From assembly GCA_963704755.1 (NCBI GenBank), contig OY969938.1, forward strand, positions 1,230,001-1,262,000: a DNA stretch of 32,000 nt. The letters run 5' to 3'. Made by a program: the position numbers and the translations under genes. The notes beneath the pieces were generated by a model. The model had not been told where the DNA came from and did no database searches. It saw only the letters and a list, made by a program, of their open reading frames with translations. The DNA is from an uncultured Chloroflexia bacterium (GTDB lineage Bacteria > Chloroflexota > Anaerolineae > Anaerolineales > Anaerolineaceae). How positions within the stretch are numbered: the first letter of the stretch is position 1; the number at the start of each line of letters is the position of its first letter. Positions 312 to 12,603 of this stretch are shown here, in pieces.

Positions 312-443
312 TACTCCATTTTTTCAGTGGACTCATTTATAACAATCGATTTAAACCTGAAGCGACCGTAGAATCGAATAAAGTCATAGGTTTGAAAAAC
401 GGGTTCAATATTGATTCAACAAGTTTTGCGTGATTCAAAGGAA

Positions 444-3245
444 TTAATTTTGCTCACAGGAATAGCGAAAGACTAAATCGCCTGATTGGAGTTGATTGTT
501 AATCTGCATTATTCCATCTGGATATTTATCATCTTTACTATAATACAACACAAAGGCATTATTTTGAGTGCCCTGAGGAGCAGAAATAACTATTTTTAGA
601 GATTGATCAATCGATACCTCTAACGGTGGTATCTTAAAATAATGTAGCTGATTATCTGCCATATTCAAAGTAGATAATTGAGTAGTATCTAGTGTTTTTC
701 CAAATTGATCCAGGATTTGAATTGTAATCGGAGGTGTATCCTTACGGCCAAAAGTACCGAAGAAGAGACCTATCTGATCAATGTCTCCTTGGCACTCTGA
801 GAGAAAGCTTTGGCTAACCTTGTCACCAGCGACAATATTCGCAGTCACTGTCTGGGGGGGAATACCGGACAAGGGATATCCACAAGCATATGGCCAATTG
901 GCTTGATTGTCAGCCTGAATAAATTCAATACGTTTGAATTGCAAAGAATAAGTTTCTGGTCCATCGTTGGATATCCGAATTTCGATACCAGTAACATGAA
1001 TACCTGGGGACAAGTTTAGGAGTCGCAGTGGGTAAGTATAAGTATGTTCTTCACCATCTGCCAACAGTGGAAGATTAAATCCGGTTACCTGTCCATTGTC
1101 GAGTGTAAAAATAATAAACAGAGATCTGGGGCTCAACTCAGGTTCAACTGCAAGAGAAATAAGAAAATCCGAATATGCGGGTAAGCATGCGCTGTTGGAT
1201 AAATTTAACTTAAAAGCAGGGTTAGAACCAATAGTCCATTCCGACGGATCAGCTTTTGACTGAGTGGCATTCGTGCCGGAAAGAACATAAGGATTTGTGA
1301 AAAGATTTACTGATTCCGAATCCTGGACAGCAGAAGCACTTTCTGCCAGATCTGTGTTATCAGGAGCAATTACCAACGATTCTGATTGAATGGGCGTTGG
1401 ATTAACATGCAAATCAATGTGTGGAAATTGGAACATCGCCCAAGCACCCGCACCATTTTCATCACCTTTGGTCTCGAAATCAATTATGATTTGTTGGCCA
1501 GCATAGGCAGATAATGGGATATTTACCGGGGTCCATGTATGCGAGTCGGGTTGCAGCGTTTTTTCGAATACAACCTGCTGATTGTCACTTGAGGTCAGTC
1601 GGATGGTAAAAGTAACTTTATTTTCTGTGGCTGAGGAAACACCCGCTTGATAATTAATCCCGACAGCAGTTTTTAGATCCGCTGAAATTAGCTGCTCTGG
1701 AATCTCAACCGTCCAACTGACCGTATGTGGTGCCGGGATCAAAACATCCAAGTGTTTATAATCCGACCATTGGGACATTGCTCCATCCAAACCAGTCCAC
1801 CAGGTAATATCAGTAGGCAGAGCATCTGTTTTTACCCGATCTTCAAAAACATACTCGCCCTGAAGAGTTTTTTCCTGGTAAGGACCAAATACAGAAAGGT
1901 CGTACTGCTCTAGAGGAGATGCCAGACTTGTGAGAAAACCGTTGTTACCGACCCCCCATTGGAAAACACTGCCTTCGCAATAGGTTGGCGCTGTCTGGTA
2001 ATATTGCAGACAAGCAGCCGAGGCTGGACTACGCGAAAGAAGGTGAAAAATCTTATCCTCGTAAGAGAGATTAGTATTTATCCAAAAAACCGTTATTGAC
2101 AAGAAATATATAATTACGGTTCCATATTTTAGAATCAGAAAAATCTTTTTATCGGCAGTTTGGAGAAATGCGATTGAAAAAACCAGTCCGGATAATCCTA
2201 TCCAGAACGGTGCTCCATCAACTATATACCAGGATGCAATAGAAGTTCGAACAATACTTATCTGCCAAATAGAGCCTAGTCCAAAAAGAGCCAAGCAAAG
2301 TTGAGGAAAGTAGTCGATGATAAATCGAAACCGGAACAATTTAAATAAAAGAATAATACATACGATAAACAGAGTTAAGCCAGCTAAACCAGTTAAAGTT
2401 TGATGAGATTTAAACAGTTGGACAACCTCGTTTGGAGTTAGTCCAATTCCATTGGAAAAAAACATCCCTAATAGATGAATAACAAATTTATAGTTAAAGA
2501 AATTAAAAGGAAGCGCTTCTGCCTTTCCACCTGTCTGAATATATTGGAAATATTCTAAATAGGGAACACAAACGGCGCAAAAACCTATGAACCAAATTCC
2601 CACAAATAGTTTCTTTCGAAAATGAAGCAACAAAGCAAGAAAAGCCAAAGGAATCACGATCAATCCAGCGCCATAAGACCAAGCAGCGATGATCATACCA
2701 ATTATTAAAAGAGCTAACCCTTTGTATGAACCCGGAAAAAATTTATAACCTACCAGGCAGATTGTCAGGCCAAATAAGGTTGTCGCTGGATAGATTGATG
2801 CCTGACCAAAAGTGAATGAAGCTATTTGTGTAAAAGAAAACCCTATCCCGGAAAGAATAACCAACAACCAAATTTTATTTTTAGAAAAAGAAATTCCCGC
2901 AAATAAAAAATAAATTATCAAGACCGAGATTGACGTAATGATGATAGAAAACATCATCTCGGCATATACATTCCACGAAAAGAACTTGGCAATGAAGGTC
3001 ATCACCATAAATGTTAGGGGTTCGCATTGATCTCTGAAACAGGCATTGCCCAAATTGCTTAGATGAAATCCATTATTGAGATAATTAATAACTACCGGTG
3101 TAAATGCCCGATAGTCATTGGATAGATTATTCATTCCAGTGGTTAAAATAATTTTTATCAATCTGATTACAGGGATCAGACTAATCAAAACTAACAAAAT
3201 TGGTAAGATAATGTTAATGGACTTTCTTGTGATTCCACGATGCAT
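444..3245 (-). CDS. Polytopic membrane glycosyltransferase-like protein: GT-C / ArnT-PMT-YfhO-like N-terminal ~430 aa, fused to a ~500-aa hydrophilic beta-rich extracytoplasmic region
   Basis: 933-aa ORF. The N-terminal part is a run of hydrophobic helices (INIILPILLVLISLIPV, MFSIIITSISVLIIYFLFAGI, LALLIIGMIIAAWSYGAGLIVIPLAFLALLL, LAGLTLFIVCIILLF, etc.). The C-terminal half has no TM segments. The start ATG overlaps the stop of the upstream GT2 (TAATG at 3243-3247). Family assignment rests on architecture and gene context only. Confidence 0.55.
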   Translation of the reverse strand: MHRGITRKSINIILPILLVLISLIPVIRLIKIILTTGMNNLSNDYRAFTPVVINYLNNGFHLSNLGNACFRDQCEPLTFMVMTFIAKFFSWNVYAEMMFSIIITSISVLIIYFLFAGISFSKNKIWLLVILSGIGFSFTQIASFTFGQASIYPATTLFGLTICLVGYKFFPGSYKGLALLIIGMIIAAWSYGAGLIVIPLAFLALLLHFRKKLFVGIWFIGFCAVCVPYLEYFQYIQTGGKAEALPFNFFNYKFVIHLLGMFFSNGIGLTPNEVVQLFKSHQTLTGLAGLTLFIVCIILLFKLFRFRFIIDYFPQLCLALFGLGSIWQISIVRTSIASWYIVDGAPFWIGLSGLVFSIAFLQTADKKIFLILKYGTVIIYFLSITVFWINTNLSYEDKIFHLLSRSPASAACLQYYQTAPTYCEGSVFQWGVGNNGFLTSLASPLEQYDLSVFGPYQEKTLQGEYVFEDRVKTDALPTDITWWTGLDGAMSQWSDYKHLDVLIPAPHTVSWTVEIPEQLISADLKTAVGINYQAGVSSATENKVTFTIRLTSSDNQQVVFEKTLQPDSHTWTPVNIPLSAYAGQQIIIDFETKGDENGAGAWAMFQFPHIDLHVNPTPIQSESLVIAPDNTDLAESASAVQDSESVNLFTNPYVLSGTNATQSKADPSEWTIGSNPAFKLNLSNSACLPAYSDFLISLAVEPELSPRSLFIIFTLDNGQVTGFNLPLLADGEEHTYTYPLRLLNLSPGIHVTGIEIRISNDGPETYSLQFKRIEFIQADNQANWPYACGYPLSGIPPQTVTANIVAGDKVSQSFLSECQGDIDQIGLFFGTFGRKDTPPITIQILDQFGKTLDTTQLSTLNMADNQLHYFKIPPLEVSIDQSLKIVISAPQGTQNNAFVLYYSKDDKYPDGIMQINNQLQSGDLVFRYSCEQN

Positions 3246-4003
3246 TAGGAAACCTTATCCCAAAACAATCGAATCTGCACGACCATAATCAAATACTTCC
3301 ATCCCCGCTTCAGATACTGAGAGAGCGTTGTCCCCGTTTTTGATTCGCCACTTCGTCGTGGCTGTGCTGTGTATGGAAGTTCACATACTCGAAAGCCCAA
3401 CCGGATCGCTCGATAAATAAAACCGATGAAGTATTCTCCATAATCACCGTTCAAGGTTATTCTGTCGAAGACCTGGCGACGGACAGCCACAAAACCGCTG
3501 GTATAGTCCGAAAATGAAGGCTTTAAAAGGAATCGGATTCCCCAGTTCAACATCCGACTGAGAATTAGTTGAATTGGTCCGCCCTTACCAATTCTGTCCT
3601 CACCACCGCCAACCACATATCGGGAATTAACAACGATATCGAAGCCCTGATCGATCATGTAAAGTAGCTGAGGAATTTTTTCCGGTGGATGTGAGAAATC
3701 ACAGTCCATCCAGACCACTGTATCGAACCTGGCCACGGAAATACCCTCACAGATTGAAGCCGTTAAACCATGATCCTTTTCCCGCCTAATCACACGCAAT
3801 ATGTCAGAATTTGCATTCGGGGTCTGAGCGGCAATTTTCCAGGTGCCATCGGGAGAATCATCATCCACCACAATAATTTCGAAATCATATTTTCCATTAT
3901 TGTTGAGAGCATTTATCACGGATTGGATAAGCGCTTGGATGTTCCCGGCTTCGTTGAGGGTGGGCATAATGACTGAAACACCTGGTTGCCATGTATTCTT
4001 CAT
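3245..4003 (-). CDS. GT2 polyprenyl-phosphate glycosyltransferase (DPM1/Ppm1/ArnC-like catalytic domain, no obvious TM anchor)
   Basis: 252 aa with GT2 hallmarks in DPM1-like order: VSVIMPTLNEAGNI, IIVVDDDSPDGT, WMDCDFSHPPEKIP (DxD), NSRYVVGGG, DYTSGF, RRSGESK. ATGA overlap with the upstream GNAT stop (4000-4003). Confidence 0.8.
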   Translation of the reverse strand: MKNTWQPGVSVIMPTLNEAGNIQALIQSVINALNNNGKYDFEIIVVDDDSPDGTWKIAAQTPNANSDILRVIRREKDHGLTASICEGISVARFDTVVWMDCDFSHPPEKIPQLLYMIDQGFDIVVNSRYVVGGGEDRIGKGGPIQLILSRMLNWGIRFLLKPSFSDYTSGFVAVRRQVFDRITLNGDYGEYFIGFIYRAIRLGFRVCELPYTAQPRRSGESKTGTTLSQYLKRGWKYLIMVVQIRLFWDKVS

Positions 4004-12457: not shown

Positions 12458-12533
12458 CTTGATCCTCCTCGGTTATTTTGGCTGTTTGGCGACACCAATT
12501 GTACCAAAGAGGGTCTTTTTGTCTACCTGTCAA

Positions 12534-12553
12534 CCTTTCTTGAGAACACCATA
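12534..12553. repeat. Right terminal inverted repeat of the ISAs1-family element
   Basis: CCTTTCTTGAGAACACCATA. Followed directly by GGTAAGTG, which also occurs 2 bp outside the left IR. Confidence 0.8.
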
Positions 12554-12603
12554 GGTAAGTGTATTGTTTAAGGTCAAATTTCAAAGAAGGGTATTTTTCA
12601 TTC

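Follow-up and report, generated by a model that had tools for sequence, protein, structure and literature searches.

In the 32,000-nt stretch of DNA analysed here (the window), a block of low-G+C genes lies close to the chromosomal gyrB of a member of the Anaerolineaceae (Chloroflexota), with a transposase sequence at either edge, and the locus raises the question of whether these genes were brought in from elsewhere, whether an insertion sequence (IS) had a part in this, and what the genes might do. The reading that we prefer, with a probability of about 0.68 for its parts taken jointly, is that of an acquired low-G+C surface-glycan locus at a variable site downstream of gyrB, in which a five-gene cassette works in the way proposed below. 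As acquired glycan islands go, this one, with seven genes in ∼11 kb, is ordinary; its membrane enzyme, however, represents a family without prior annotation.

Composition and gene layout

The G+C content is 0.53 in bp 1–311, 0.40 in 312–11243, 0.50 in the ISAs1-family element (11244–12553), 0.30 in 12554–12603 and 0.56 in 12604–32000, and when the IS is removed in silico, 100-bp windows show a step from ∼0.30 to ∼0.60 inside ∼100 bp, at GTG 12604. The preliminary description had reported an AT-rich block with abrupt compositional borders, which these values bear out, and the letters that it quoted at 12565–12603 and from 12604 match the sequence exactly. GC3 per gene is 0.34–0.47 in the island (n = 7) and 0.57–0.74 in the flank (n = 14), ranges that do not overlap (Mann-Whitney p = 3e-4); the tetranucleotide correlation of the island with the two flank halves is 0.24 and −0.01, whereas that between the flank halves is 0.88. 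The comparison of GC, tetranucleotides and codon usage that had been proposed thus gives a significant difference, and the amino acid bias noticed earlier is also present (F+I+N+K+Y fractions of 0.26–0.33 in island proteins versus 0.15–0.28 in flank proteins). The composition-corrected dinucleotide signature (delta*), on the other hand, differs little, being 67–90 between island and flank and 59 between the flank halves, so the island/flank contrast is mostly a G+C effect.

All seven island genes lie on the minus strand and are tightly packed (Table 1), as had been described; they overlap or abut at 3245/3245, 4000–4003, 4614/4614, 5756/5759 and 8497–8510, and the one exception is the gap at 6194–6401. 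That the cargo consists of surface-glycan genes is upheld by family assignments from Pfam, NCBIfam and PDB matches.

Table 1 Features of the island and of the sequences on either side of it
Feature	Position (bp)	Strand	Remarks
IS1182/IS5-like DDE transposase gene, 3′ end	1..311	+	ORF 3-311, stop 309-311; cut by window start
AT-rich spacer, left transposase stop to stop of last island gene	312..443	.	GC 0.33-0.35
Membrane protein, 933 aa, family without annotation	444..3245	-	11 predicted TM helices with GT-C-like fold, then three extracytoplasmic beta-sandwich (CBM-like) domains
GT2, DPM1/ArnC/GtrB-like polyprenyl-phosphate glycosyltransferase, 252 aa	3245..4003	-	Pfam Glycos_transf_2 8.5e-35
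GNAT N-acetyltransferase, 204 aa	4000..4614	-	Pfam Acetyltransf_1 7.6e-13
DegT-family sugar aminotransferase	4614..5756	-	Pfam DegT_DnrJ_EryC1 2.9e-118
Cupin-like protein, 144 aa, weakly WbuC-like	5759..6193	-	NCBIfam cupin_WbuC 1.2e-6, 28 bits, below 42-bit cut-off
Fusion, 702 aa, GT-B-like glycosyltransferase (∼385 aa) + class-I SAM methyltransferase	6402..8510	-	Methyltransf_23/11/12 at residues 482-557
Methyltransf_24 + linker + WsaF-like (rhamnosyl)transferase, 836 aa	8497..11007	-	Pfam Methyltransf_24 2.1e-29, WsaF_N 3e-14, WsaF_C 4.8e-45
Upstream spacer of island operon, AT-rich	11008..11243	.	GC 0.29-0.37
Promoter-like site in this spacer	11224-11196	-	TTTACC-17-TATAAT, 10/12, consensus match only
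ISAs1 target-site duplication, left copy	11234..11243	.	GGTAAGTGGA; 9/10 versus right copy, first 8 identical
ISAs1-family insertion sequence, 1310 bp	11244..12553	-	NCBIfam transpos_ISAs1, Pfam DDE_Tnp_1 + DDE_Tnp_1_assoc
ISAs1 target-site duplication, right copy	12554..12563	.	GGTAAGTGTA; 9/10 versus left copy
Interval holding the right junction, island-type AT-rich DNA / truncated resident gene	12564..12612	.	GC jump ∼12600; homology start
PMT_2-family GT-C glycosyltransferase gene, 3′ remnant	12604..13344	+	Last ∼240 codons of a ∼610-aa gene; GC3 0.69, host-like codon usage
YgjP-like metallopeptidase gene	13239..14054	+	Pfam YgjP-like 5.2e-61, residues 50-251; host composition; between remnant and gyrB
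gyrB	14119..16050	-	Pfam; last gene of the syntenic MBL-plsY-DUF5656-o332-gyrB block

A conserved cassette and a GT-C-like membrane protein

Five of the genes, encoding the cupin, a perosamine-synthase-like aminotransferase, the GNAT, a DPM1/ArnC-like GT2 and the 933-aa GT-C-like protein, form a conserved cassette. The closest relative found is the collinear cluster of contig L081 (59–84% amino acid identity, GC 0.43), in which homology with the island ends together with the 933-aa reading frame, at its stop codon, and the cluster runs on past this last gene without an IS. In contig L089 the order is cupin-DegT-GNAT-GT2-948-aa homologue (34% identical)-WsaF-like-GT1, and a DDE transposase lies nearby. 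The cupin has no match in Pfam and no sequence match in the PDB, and a role in sugar-nucleotide tailoring is uncertain; its homologues in L081 (83% identity) and L089 (57%) are likewise neighbors of the aminotransferase. The aminotransferase is closest to GDP-perosamine synthase (PDB perosamine synthetase 3dr7/3bn1, ∼2e-86) and likely starts at ATG 5744, which would give 376 aa, the length of the 100% identical database protein P0217; its named relatives at 67–69% identity are spread over many phyla. Weak NCBIfam matches of the GNAT to the sugar-nucleotide GNATs PseH (5e-6) and WecD (6.5e-3) suggest that it N-acetylates the amino sugar. The GT2 consists of the catalytic domain only, without a TM domain; its best NCBIfam matches, PgfS and ArnC, are both below their cut-offs, and in the PDB it matches the P. 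furiosus Dol-P-Man synthase (5mlz, 1.7e-33), ArnC (∼1e-16) and GtrB (5ekp).

The two upstream genes encode bifunctional proteins. In the 836-aa protein an N-terminal Methyltransf_24 domain is followed by a heptad-rich linker (∼240–340), putatively a coiled coil to judge from its sequence, and by a C-terminal WsaF-like domain (PDB WsaF 2x0d, 3.8e-32, residues 453–789). The 702-aa fusion has a weak Pfam match to Glyco_trans_1_4 at residues 218–348 and no match in a PDB sequence search; its L081 homologue (76% identity) is only 385 aa long and does not have the methyltransferase part.

The 933-aa protein matches nothing in Pfam or NCBIfam even at E ≤ 10. Its AF2 model (pLDDT 86.5, pTM 0.79) gives Foldseek matches to AftD, EmbC, ArnT and OST, in a list led by beta-sandwich matches; the TM domain alone matches Pmt4 (TM 0.52), STT3, PglB and DPY19, each with a probability of ∼1, and GT-C enzymes are the only matches in that search with a TM-score ≥0.3 and high probability. 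This fold match is modest (best E = 2e-3, TM 0.52), and hhalign found no similarity between this family and the PMT_2 family. Directly after TM1, S42 and D44 are invariant and N43 is nearly so, which places the invariant Asp in the first outside loop. These features, together with the gene neighborhoods of homologues in an Anaerolineae MAG and in L082 (described below), suggest a polyprenyl-phosphate-sugar-dependent glycosyltransferase with a GT-C-like fold; GT-C enzymes with extracellular carbohydrate-binding domains are part of the reviewed scheme of such glycosylation systems (PMC8035078).

Family assignments and conserved gene order suggest how the cassette could work. The cupin, the perosamine-synthase-like 4-aminotransferase and the GNAT would convert an NDP-4-keto-6-deoxyhexose, made elsewhere, to NDP-4-acetamido-4,6-dideoxyhexose, the identity of the sugar being that suggested by the nearest homologues. 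The GT2 would place the 4-acetamido-4,6-dideoxyhexose onto polyprenyl phosphate, and the lipid-linked sugar would then be flipped by a flippase encoded outside the visible block, which has no 4,6-dehydratase, nucleotidyltransferase, rml genes, flippase, exporter or initiating transferase. Outside the membrane the 933-aa enzyme would add the sugar to a cell-surface polymer held by its three beta-sandwich domains; the polymer, probably a rhamnan, would be extended and methylated (capped) by the two bifunctional enzymes. The same logic as in the Arn pathway and in three-component (multi-component transmembrane) glycosylation systems would apply to the five genes.

The 933-aa protein could instead be an oligosaccharyltransferase or ligase that moves a finished lipid-linked glycan onto protein (S-layer) or cell wall, the GT2 and amino-sugar genes serving another step, and although we think this unlikely it carries some weight. 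STT3, PglB and AglB score close to Pmt4 as fold matches, the motif YEDK...SRSPASAACL...FQWGxG is strongly conserved right after the last TM helix, and a small GT2 is found near five of eight independent homologues and not near the other three; among the homologues is that of L082, which closes an ABC-transporter-type Wzm/Wzt-rmlCBAD-WsaF-like rhamnan cluster with no small GT2. On the other hand, the protein has no WWDxG motif, its gene has the DPM1/ArnC-like GT2 gene as a neighbor in the same orientation in the window, L081 and L089 even though the membrane proteins are only 34–59% identical, and in an Anaerolineae MAG a homologue has for neighbors a GT2 gene along with monosaccharide transferase genes (two of PMT_2 type and one for a Dpy19-like GT-C enzyme). 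We therefore prefer the monosaccharide transferase of the proposed cassette.

The borders of the island

The flank contains gyrB (85% identical to that of Bellilinea sp. and Anaerolineaceae MAGs), plsY and an ABC importer (solute-binding protein, two permeases, ATPase), all three of which had been named correctly. The gene order MBL-plsY-DUF5656-o332-gyrB is syntenic across Anaerolineae relatives, but the site just downstream of gyrB varies, and in several relatives nusA-infB-nrnA-truB-ribF occupies the position of the island. None of the 80 Anaerolineae relatives fetched, the nearest of which are genus-level, has anything of bp 1–14054 (the island, the PMT_2 remnant and the YgjP gene) at up to 10 kb from gyrB, and the gyrB-side block is conserved.

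The ISAs1 element was taken earlier to be the right border, together with its own target duplication. The IS and the 9/10 duplication are real (flanking repeats that agree at 9/10 or better have a chance probability of ∼3e-5), but they do not mark the border: the element entered the AT-rich spacer upstream of the island genes at a later time, by simple insertion with an 8–10-bp target duplication, and its transposase has been frameshifted since. Its inverted repeats (11244–11263 and 12534–12553) match at 18 of 20 positions; with complete repeats and a target duplication of its own, it inserted alone. One frameshift divides the transposase gene between ORFs 12457–12029 and 12102–11254 (frame switch near 12060–12075), whose NCBIfam transpos_ISAs1 matches are 3.6e-43 and 5.1e-11. 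Island-type AT-rich DNA extends ∼40 bp past the IS toward gyrB, up to the truncated PMT_2 gene, where the true junction lies.

Homology to full-length PMT_2 proteins starts at 12613, possibly at 12586. In the homologues (n = 475) the full-length proteins have 580–630 aa; the aligned region corresponds to their residues ∼340–615, and PF13231 PMT_2 lies at ∼150–330. The remnant consequently lacks the N-terminal ∼340–370 codons, including the catalytic domain, and no N-terminal remnant was found across the whole window. The event that introduced the island, whether insertion or replacement, destroyed the 5′ ∼60% of this resident gene, and as evidence for such an event the break within the gene outweighs the IS itself. 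The YgjP-like gene probably starts downstream of 13344; the PMT_2-YgjP adjacency also occurs in metagenome contig L085, there with a longer PMT_2 gene.

At the left edge ORF 3–311 gives only a weak Pfam match (DDE_Tnp_1_6 C-terminus, E = 0.06), and its 26 homologues (44–81% identity), which lie on short Pelolinea/Chloroflexi contigs, in many cases have PF13751. The transposase 3′ end proposed as the left border is thus real and of the IS1182/IS5 type, and unrelated to ISAs1, as had been said; as a border it is not established, for the window begins inside this IS. Its end must fall in the 132 bp that separate the transposase stop from that of the last island gene, and since homologous clusters run past this gene, ∼12 kb is a minimum size for the island.

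Origin of the island

Transposase sequences at both ends of a low-G+C block might suggest a composite transposon in which they mobilise the glycan genes as a unit. This is already contradicted and scarcely credible: two IS of different families (PF13751 IS1182/IS5-like and ISAs1) cannot make up a composite transposon, the complete ends and the target duplication of the ISAs1 element belong to it alone, its transposase is frameshifted, and the L081 cluster runs on beyond the counterpart of the last island gene without an IS. The island need not have been moved by either IS. It is also very improbable that the contig of a low-G+C organism was joined to an Anaerolineaceae chromosome in assembly through repeated IS copies. 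Such copies commonly break or mis-join assemblies, they are present at both edges, and very short contigs hold nearly all of the homologues of the left transposase, but the 9/10 match flanking ISAs1 is what a single insertion into uninterrupted DNA would leave, the ∼40 bp of island-type DNA lie on its gyrB side, and the contig of the source record has 4.87 Mb.

We infer that the island was acquired horizontally. The earlier claim of horizontally acquired surface-glycan cargo stands as to the cargo and the compositional break, and the island is absent from the gyrB neighborhood of all 80 relatives, but a recent transfer is only weakly indicated by low G+C as such, since other genomes of the group likewise have glycan loci that are GC-poor relative to their surroundings (L090, 0.39–0.52 versus flanks of 0.55–0.67; the membrane-protein gene of L082, 0.33 versus 0.49). 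These loci also favor the rather unlikely alternative of a native, long-resident glycan locus with a locus-specific low G+C; the synteny break and the truncated PMT_2 gene would then stem from IS-mediated deletion or from local rearrangement. In its favor, too, are a dinucleotide signature that cannot be called clearly foreign, a region downstream of gyrB that varies from relative to relative in any case, and the Anaerolineae/Anaerolineaceae origin of some membrane-protein and aminotransferase homologues. A GC3 gap of ∼0.25 without overlap between island and flank is, however, large if the genes have been resident for long enough to ameliorate, and horizontal acquisition accords better with a junction inside a gene of host composition, a block absent near gyrB in all 80 relatives, two IS at its edges, and a five-gene cassette that lies beside a transposase in the unrelated contig L089.

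Composition and chromosomal setting of the island

The island (window 312-11243), a block of seven surface-glycan genes, differs strongly in composition from the host flank (12604-32000). Its G+C fraction is 0.40 versus 0.56, and GC3 is 0.34-0.47 in its seven genes versus 0.57-0.74 in 14 flank genes, a complete separation (Mann-Whitney p = 3e-4); the ISAs1 element to its right is intermediate (0.50), and the transposase fragment to its left (1-311) has a G+C fraction of 0.53. For tetranucleotide frequencies, r is 0.88 between the flank halves but 0.24 and -0.01 when the island is compared with one and the other. 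The composition-corrected dinucleotide distance (delta*) is only marginally raised, at 67-90 between island and flank versus 59 between the flank halves, so the contrast is mainly one of G+C. A preliminary description of this DNA had reported an AT-rich island with abrupt compositional borders, packed or overlapping minus-strand genes, and a flank that includes gyrB, plsY and an ABC importer. The break is real and lies where it was placed, both base composition and codon usage set the island apart from the flank, and the sequence strings quoted there match the window exactly. All seven island ORFs do lie on the minus strand and overlap or abut, with a single gap of 208 bp (6194-6401), and the named flank genes are present together with other housekeeping genes.

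The window gyrB is 85% identical to gyrB of Bellilinea sp. and of Anaerolineaceae MAGs, and the gene order MBL-fold hydrolase, plsY, DUF5656, 332-aa hypothetical, gyrB is syntenic across dozens of Anaerolineae; synteny with these relatives ends at the gyrB 3' end. The YgjP-like gene, the PMT_2 remnant discussed below and the island genes are all missing within 10 kb of gyrB in the 80 Anaerolineae loci compared, the closest of which has 85% gyrB identity. In several relatives (L002, L015, L019, L026 and L031), gyrB is followed by nusA-infB-nrnA-truB-ribF without a GC trough, sometimes with an alpha-amylase gene in between. This operon is not in the window, which implies an insertion or rearrangement between gyrB and the operon in this genome. 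Absence near gyrB shows that the island is not conserved; it does not show that it is recent, since the closest relative is only of genus-level relatedness and the site is variable. The 332-aa protein encoded directly upstream of gyrB matches no Pfam family and is 31-52% identical to the proteins at the same position in dozens of Anaerolineae.

Features of the window and the matches on which their assignments rest
Feature	Position (strand)	Transcription order in island	Assignment and matches
Transposase gene, 3' end	3-311		IS1182/IS5-like; direct Pfam match to DDE_Tnp_1_6 weak (E = 0.06)
836-aa protein		first	Methyltransf_24, heptad-rich linker and WsaF-like glycosyltransferase; PDB WsaF (3.8e-32)
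702-aa protein		second	GT-B-like domain fused to class-I methyltransferase
Cupin, 144 aa		third	weakly WbuC-like
DegT aminotransferase		fourth	nearest GDP-perosamine synthase (~2e-86)
GNAT acetyltransferase		fifth	
GT2, 252 aa		sixth	best solved relatives Dol-P-Man synthase 5mlz (1.7e-33), ArnC, GtrB
Membrane protein, 933 aa		seventh, last	no Pfam/NCBIfam match
AT-rich spacer	11008-11243		236 bp
ISAs1-family element, complete	11244-12553		1310 bp; NCBIfam ISAs1 (3.6e-43 and 5.1e-11, two ORFs); Pfam DDE_Tnp_1, DDE_Tnp_1_assoc
ISAs1 terminal inverted repeats	11244-11263 / 12534-12553		18/20 identical
ISAs1 flanking direct repeats	11234-11243 / 12554-12563		GGTAAGTGGA / GGTAAGTGTA
PMT_2 gene remnant	12604-13344 (+)		C-terminal part of full-length relatives
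YgjP-like gene	13239-14054 (+)		
gyrB	14119-16050 (-)		
332-aa protein	16102-17100 (-)		no Pfam family
GNAT gene of the flank	20768-21400		GC 0.49, GC3 0.57
MalT-like LuxR regulator gene	26813-29656		
Long ORF	30334-31716 (+)		weak Condensation/PapA-like matches (3e-6)
Long ORF	30328-31377 (-)		probably spurious

Insertion sequences and the right junction

The mobility genes found with the island are the ISAs1 element and the 3' end of the left transposase gene; no integrase was seen with it. The window includes only the last 311 bp of the left element. Its 26 homologues (44-81% identical, from short Pelolinea/Chloroflexi contigs) in many cases carry PF13751, and the ORF is thus read as the 3' end of an IS1182/IS5-like transposase gene, which upholds the earlier assignment to the IS5/IS1182/IS4 type; a tblastn search of plasmids with this fragment gave no match. 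In the ISAs1 element, the C-terminal and N-terminal transposase ORFs score 147.9 (cut-off 70) and 42 bits, respectively, against model NF033564. The two ORFs overlap (12029-12102) because of a single 1-nt frameshift near 12060-12075, where the protein reads ...MDGKALRGTS / ASGELCGEYVLSIYAG..., and this is either a mark of a decayed copy or a base-calling error. The direct repeats that flank the element match at 9 of 10 positions (8 bp exactly), and the chance probability of a match at least this good is ~3e-5.

Such a duplication means that the DNA on the two sides was continuous before the element arrived, and it argues against an assembly join at ISAs1. When the element is removed in silico, the AT-rich spacer joins 40 AT-rich bases (12564-12603), and only beyond 12603 does GC climb from ~0.3 to ~0.6. 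ISAs1 is therefore a later arrival within island-type DNA. The preliminary description was right about its family and its own target duplication, but the element is not the border of the island that it was taken to be. A composite transposon is excluded because the two insertion sequences belong to unrelated families, and no island-wide direct or inverted repeats, whether as transposon ends or as attachment sites, were found. The window also has no tRNA genes or Rfam families, which leaves tRNA-targeted integration unsupported.

The right border of the island is a truncated gene, and the left border probably lies outside the window. The ORF immediately to the right of the GC step (12604-13344) has host-like codon usage (GC3 0.69) and 475 relatives in an exhaustive HMMER search. 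The full-length relatives are 580-630 aa long and have a PMT_2 (GT-C) domain at residues ~150-330, but the window ORF covers no more than their residues ~340-615, with homology beginning at 12613 or possibly at 12586. There is no trace of the N-terminal part anywhere in the window. It follows that this is a gene remnant and not a functional PMT_2 (GT39/GT83-like) member, and that the GC step falls where a resident GT-C glycosyltransferase gene is broken. A location of the missing N-terminus beyond ISAs1 was considered and rejected; that stretch is taken up by the oppositely oriented gene of the 836-aa protein, which has strong Pfam matches. A metagenome scan for the remnant gave five loci, the informative one being contig L085, where the gene pair of the window, PMT_2 then YgjP-like, recurs with a longer PMT_2 gene, so the pair is older than the break. 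The junction and the later, possibly since decayed, ISAs1 insertion record two layers of history, and the truncation points to replacement of the surface-glycosylation function of the PMT_2 gene by a different one. At its end (13239-13344) the remnant shares ~100 bp with the longest YgjP-like ORF, and since the Pfam domain of that ORF begins at residue 50 its real start is probably further downstream.

The cargo genes and the 933-aa membrane protein

The 836-aa protein matches the rhamnosyltransferase WsaF over its C-terminal half (PDB 2x0d; Pfam WsaF_N and WsaF_C). WsaF and the methyltransferase/rhamnosyltransferase WsaE belong to the slg cluster of Geobacillus stearothermophilus NRS 2004/3a. 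The 836-aa protein resembles WsaE in the fusion of a methyltransferase to rhamnosyltransferase-type domains and differs from it in domain order and in methyltransferase family (Methyltransf_24); unlike the slg cluster, the visible island has no rmlACBD, wzm/wzt, WsaP or WsaB. Between its two domains lies a long charged linker (residues ~240-340, bp ~9990-10290). The heptad pattern read in this linker is reminiscent of the "molecular rulers," coiled coils present in WbdD, WbbB and other enzymes that terminate O-antigen chains. Searches of PDB and Pfam gave nothing usable for the 702-aa fusion protein, or for the cupin, which had only chance-level matches to cold-shock proteins. The 702-aa homologue on metagenome contig L081 (L081:230-1387) is 76% identical but has 385 aa and ends before the SAM methyltransferase domain. 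Homologues of the aminotransferase occur in many phyla at 67-69% identity, with no clear donor lineage. The GT2 protein, by its matches to 5mlz, ArnC and GtrB, appears to be a GT-A polyprenyl-phosphate sugar synthase. The visible block contains no dehydratase, nucleotidyltransferase, flippase, exporter or initiating transferase gene, one reason to think that the locus continues to the left of the window. No ORF in 312-11243 is a GtrA- or Wzx-type flippase and the only gap is too short for one; a flippase may be encoded elsewhere.

The 933-aa protein has no Pfam or NCBIfam match even at E <= 10, and a word-indexed search of ~5.8 billion protein clusters found only 39 relatives. An AlphaFold2 model made with 28 homologues (pLDDT 86.5, pTM 0.79) has 11 long transmembrane (TM) helices (residues 4-391) and, after a short helical stretch, three beta-sandwich domains (456-614, 655-777 and 809-931). 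Basic residues cluster at the N-terminus and in alternate loops (117-125, 170-175, 209-212, 303-308 and 360-366), a positive-inside pattern by which the N-terminus would be cytoplasmic, and the C-terminal domains and the loop that follows TM1 extracytoplasmic. In a Foldseek search with the whole model, tandem carbohydrate-binding-module (CBM)-like domains were matched along with the GT-C enzymes AftD, EmbC, ArnT and oligosaccharyltransferase. The beta-sandwich matches dominated, so the TM domain was modeled and searched separately. It then matched Pmt4 (TM-scores 0.52/0.49), STT3 (0.45-0.47), PglB (0.42) and DPY19 (0.40), as well as AglB, with probabilities near 1 and modest E-values (2e-3 and weaker). 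No match other than GT-C enzymes combined a high probability with a TM-score of 0.3 or more; the others, MFS transporters included, scored below 0.2.

The 11 helices fall within the 8-13 of GT-C enzymes, and the models have the GT-C core architecture. GT-C enzymes carry a catalytic acid in the first outside loop (PMC8035078), and directly after TM1 the 933-aa protein has the motif NNLSNDY, in which S42 and D44 never vary among the 28 homologues and N43 hardly does; D44 would be the acidic residue of the first extracytoplasmic loop if the predicted topology is correct. The family has a second conserved motif, YEDK...FQWGxG. By sequence the protein belongs to none of the described GT-C families (PMT_2, ArnT, YfhO, STT3 and others): profile-profile alignment (hhalign) with PMT_2 found no similarity (probability 0.6%), and a PDB profile search gave only a weak lectin-like match in the soluble part. 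The modeled fold thus suggests a GT-C-like protein of an unannotated family.

A conserved cassette and its predicted pathway

The cupin, aminotransferase, GNAT, GT2 and 933-aa genes form a cassette that is a conserved unit. Contig L081 (7.6 kb, GC 0.43) is collinear with window 444-8700 at 59-84% amino acid identity, and its cluster continues past the membrane-protein gene. A second contig, L089, has cupin, DegT, GNAT and GT2 genes followed by a 948-aa homologue (34%) and then WsaF-like and GT1 genes, with a DDE transposase gene upstream. The contexts of more distant homologues of the 933-aa protein vary; a small GT2 is nearby in five of eight independent contexts. The window, L081 and L089 have a DPM1/ArnC-like GT2 gene adjoining the membrane-protein gene; in L090 and L094 a GT2 gene is nearby. 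L090 is an Anaerolineae MAG in which an 811-aa homologue lies amid GT2, two PMT_2 genes and a Dpy19-like gene, and in L082 a 931-aa homologue stands at the end of a rhamnan cluster (Wzm/Wzt, rmlCBAD, methyltransferase/GT2, WsaF-like). The L090 segment (GCA_037481755.1, L090:7349-18039; GT2, PMT/PMT_2, 811-aa homologue, Dpy19-like, GT4, PMT_2, sulfatase) has GC of 0.39-0.52 beside housekeeping DNA of 0.55-0.67, and is a second GC-poor, GT-C-rich locus in this class. The L082 homologue (L082:10001-12796) has GC of 0.33 within a cluster of ~0.49, a single-gene trough like those of wzy and wzx.

The predicted order of activities in the cassette (4-aminotransferase, N-acylation, GT2 transfer onto polyprenyl phosphate, GT-C transfer outside the membrane) is that of the Arn pathway (PmrHFIJKLM; ArnB, ArnA, ArnC, ArnT). 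The aminotransferase matches ArnB (~1e-54), the GT2 matches ArnC structures (~1e-16), and ArnT is among the fold matches of the 933-aa protein. Unlike the Arn pathway, the cassette has a GNAT rather than a formyltransferase as its putative N-acylase, an aminotransferase nearest to perosamine synthase and a GT2 without TM helices, and the visible island lacks a deacylase (ArnD), the ArnE/F flippase and the ArnA dehydrogenase. The 933-aa protein has no sequence similarity to ArnT/PMT_2 and has three extra beta-sandwich domains, and its acceptor should not be assumed to be lipid A. The multi-component (three-component) transmembrane glycosylation systems CsbB/GtcA/YfhO, GtrA/B/C and GacI/J/K/L (PMC8035078; PMC11127046) likewise pair a GT-A polyprenyl-phosphate-sugar synthase with a multi-spanning GT-C enzyme for surface-polymer decoration, as the sequences and folds predict for the cassette. 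In its link to rhamnan-type clusters the cassette is reminiscent of GacI/GacL, in its soluble GT2, of GacI (which requires a membrane partner), and in its large GT-C-like protein with predicted extracellular carbohydrate-binding domains, of AftD. Unlike these systems, the visible island has no GtrA-/Wzx-type flippase or GacJ-like partner, its predicted donor is a 4-acetamido-4,6-dideoxyhexose from a dedicated three-gene module, and its GT-C-like family has no Pfam model. A search of the available literature library found no paper linking perosamine with a GT-C enzyme.

In the pathway that we propose, the cupin, aminotransferase and GNAT would turn a 4-keto-6-deoxy precursor, produced elsewhere, into an NDP-4-acetamido-4,6-dideoxyhexose, and the GT2 would put this sugar on polyprenyl phosphate. 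After flipping, the 933-aa enzyme would add it to a polymer of the cell surface that is bound by the CBM-like domains of this enzyme, and the two glycosyl/methyl-transferase fusions would extend and cap this polymer, probably a rhamnan. Fold and gene context fit a GT-C transferase acting on a surface polymer, and a polyprenyl-phosphate-linked donor is suggested by the neighboring GT2. In the chief rival to this mechanism, the 933-aa protein would instead act as a glycan ligase or oligosaccharyltransferase; oligosaccharyltransferases are among its fold matches, and the position of its gene next to that of a DPM1/ArnC-like GT2 speaks against this rival. A more far-reaching reading, to which we give a probability of about 0.4, takes the 933-aa protein, with its 11 TM helices, three CBM-like domains and two conserved motifs and with neither a Pfam model nor a sequence link to a known GT-C family, as the founder of an undescribed GT-C family. 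With its fixed partners, namely the cupin, perosamine-synthase-like aminotransferase, GNAT and soluble DPM1-like GT2, it would form a new Arn-like extracytoplasmic glycosylation system that loads 4-acetamido-4,6-dideoxyhexose on polyprenyl phosphate. Chloroflexota and other phyla would use this system to decorate surface polymers of the rhamnan type, and the cassette would travel from genome to genome as a whole. If the proposed pathway is correct, three-component systems would gain a donor sugar and a GT-C family new to them, and there would be a handle on Chloroflexota cell-envelope glycans, about which, to our knowledge, almost nothing is known experimentally.

Origin of the island

GC-poor, IS-flanked polysaccharide loci are a classic form of surface-antigen diversification, and low-GC O-antigen and capsule-type clusters, for example the enterobacterial rfb loci, are acquired by lateral transfer. 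The island resembles these in its co-oriented, packed sugar-nucleotide tailoring and glycosyltransferase genes, its G+C far below that of the chromosome, its variable site and the insertion sequences at its edges. It differs in that its host belongs to the Chloroflexota (generally taken to have a single membrane), that its visible part lacks wzx/wzy, wzm/wzt, an initiating transferase and conserved flanking "cassette site" genes, and that one junction cuts a resident GT-C gene. A horizontal origin is likely, though not proven. In its favor are the difference in GC3, the breakpoint within a host gene, the absence from relatives and the insertion sequences at both edges, as well as the recurrence of the cassette, with much the same GC (0.41-0.43), in unrelated contigs, in one case beside a transposase gene. 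Against it stand the near-native dinucleotide signature, the aminotransferase homologue search, which found no donor, and the fact that glycan loci in related genomes (L090 and L082) are locally GC-poor too. The preliminary description was correct in recognizing the island, which as a GC-poor, IS-associated surface-glycan island is of an ordinary kind, if a clean example in the poorly studied Anaerolineae. What is new here is that ISAs1 is secondary, that the true junction truncates a PMT_2 gene and that the left border probably lies beyond the window, and, of more use than the island itself, the conserved Arn-like five-gene cassette with a GT-C-like protein that has no family annotation.

The host flank has two smaller GC dips of its own, one (20500-21400) over a GNAT gene and one (26500-27000) in the divergent intergenic region between an ABC solute-binding-protein gene and the MalT-like LuxR regulator gene. 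Near its right end two long ORFs of GC 0.63-0.67 overlap on opposite strands, of which the plus-strand one may encode an acyltransferase.
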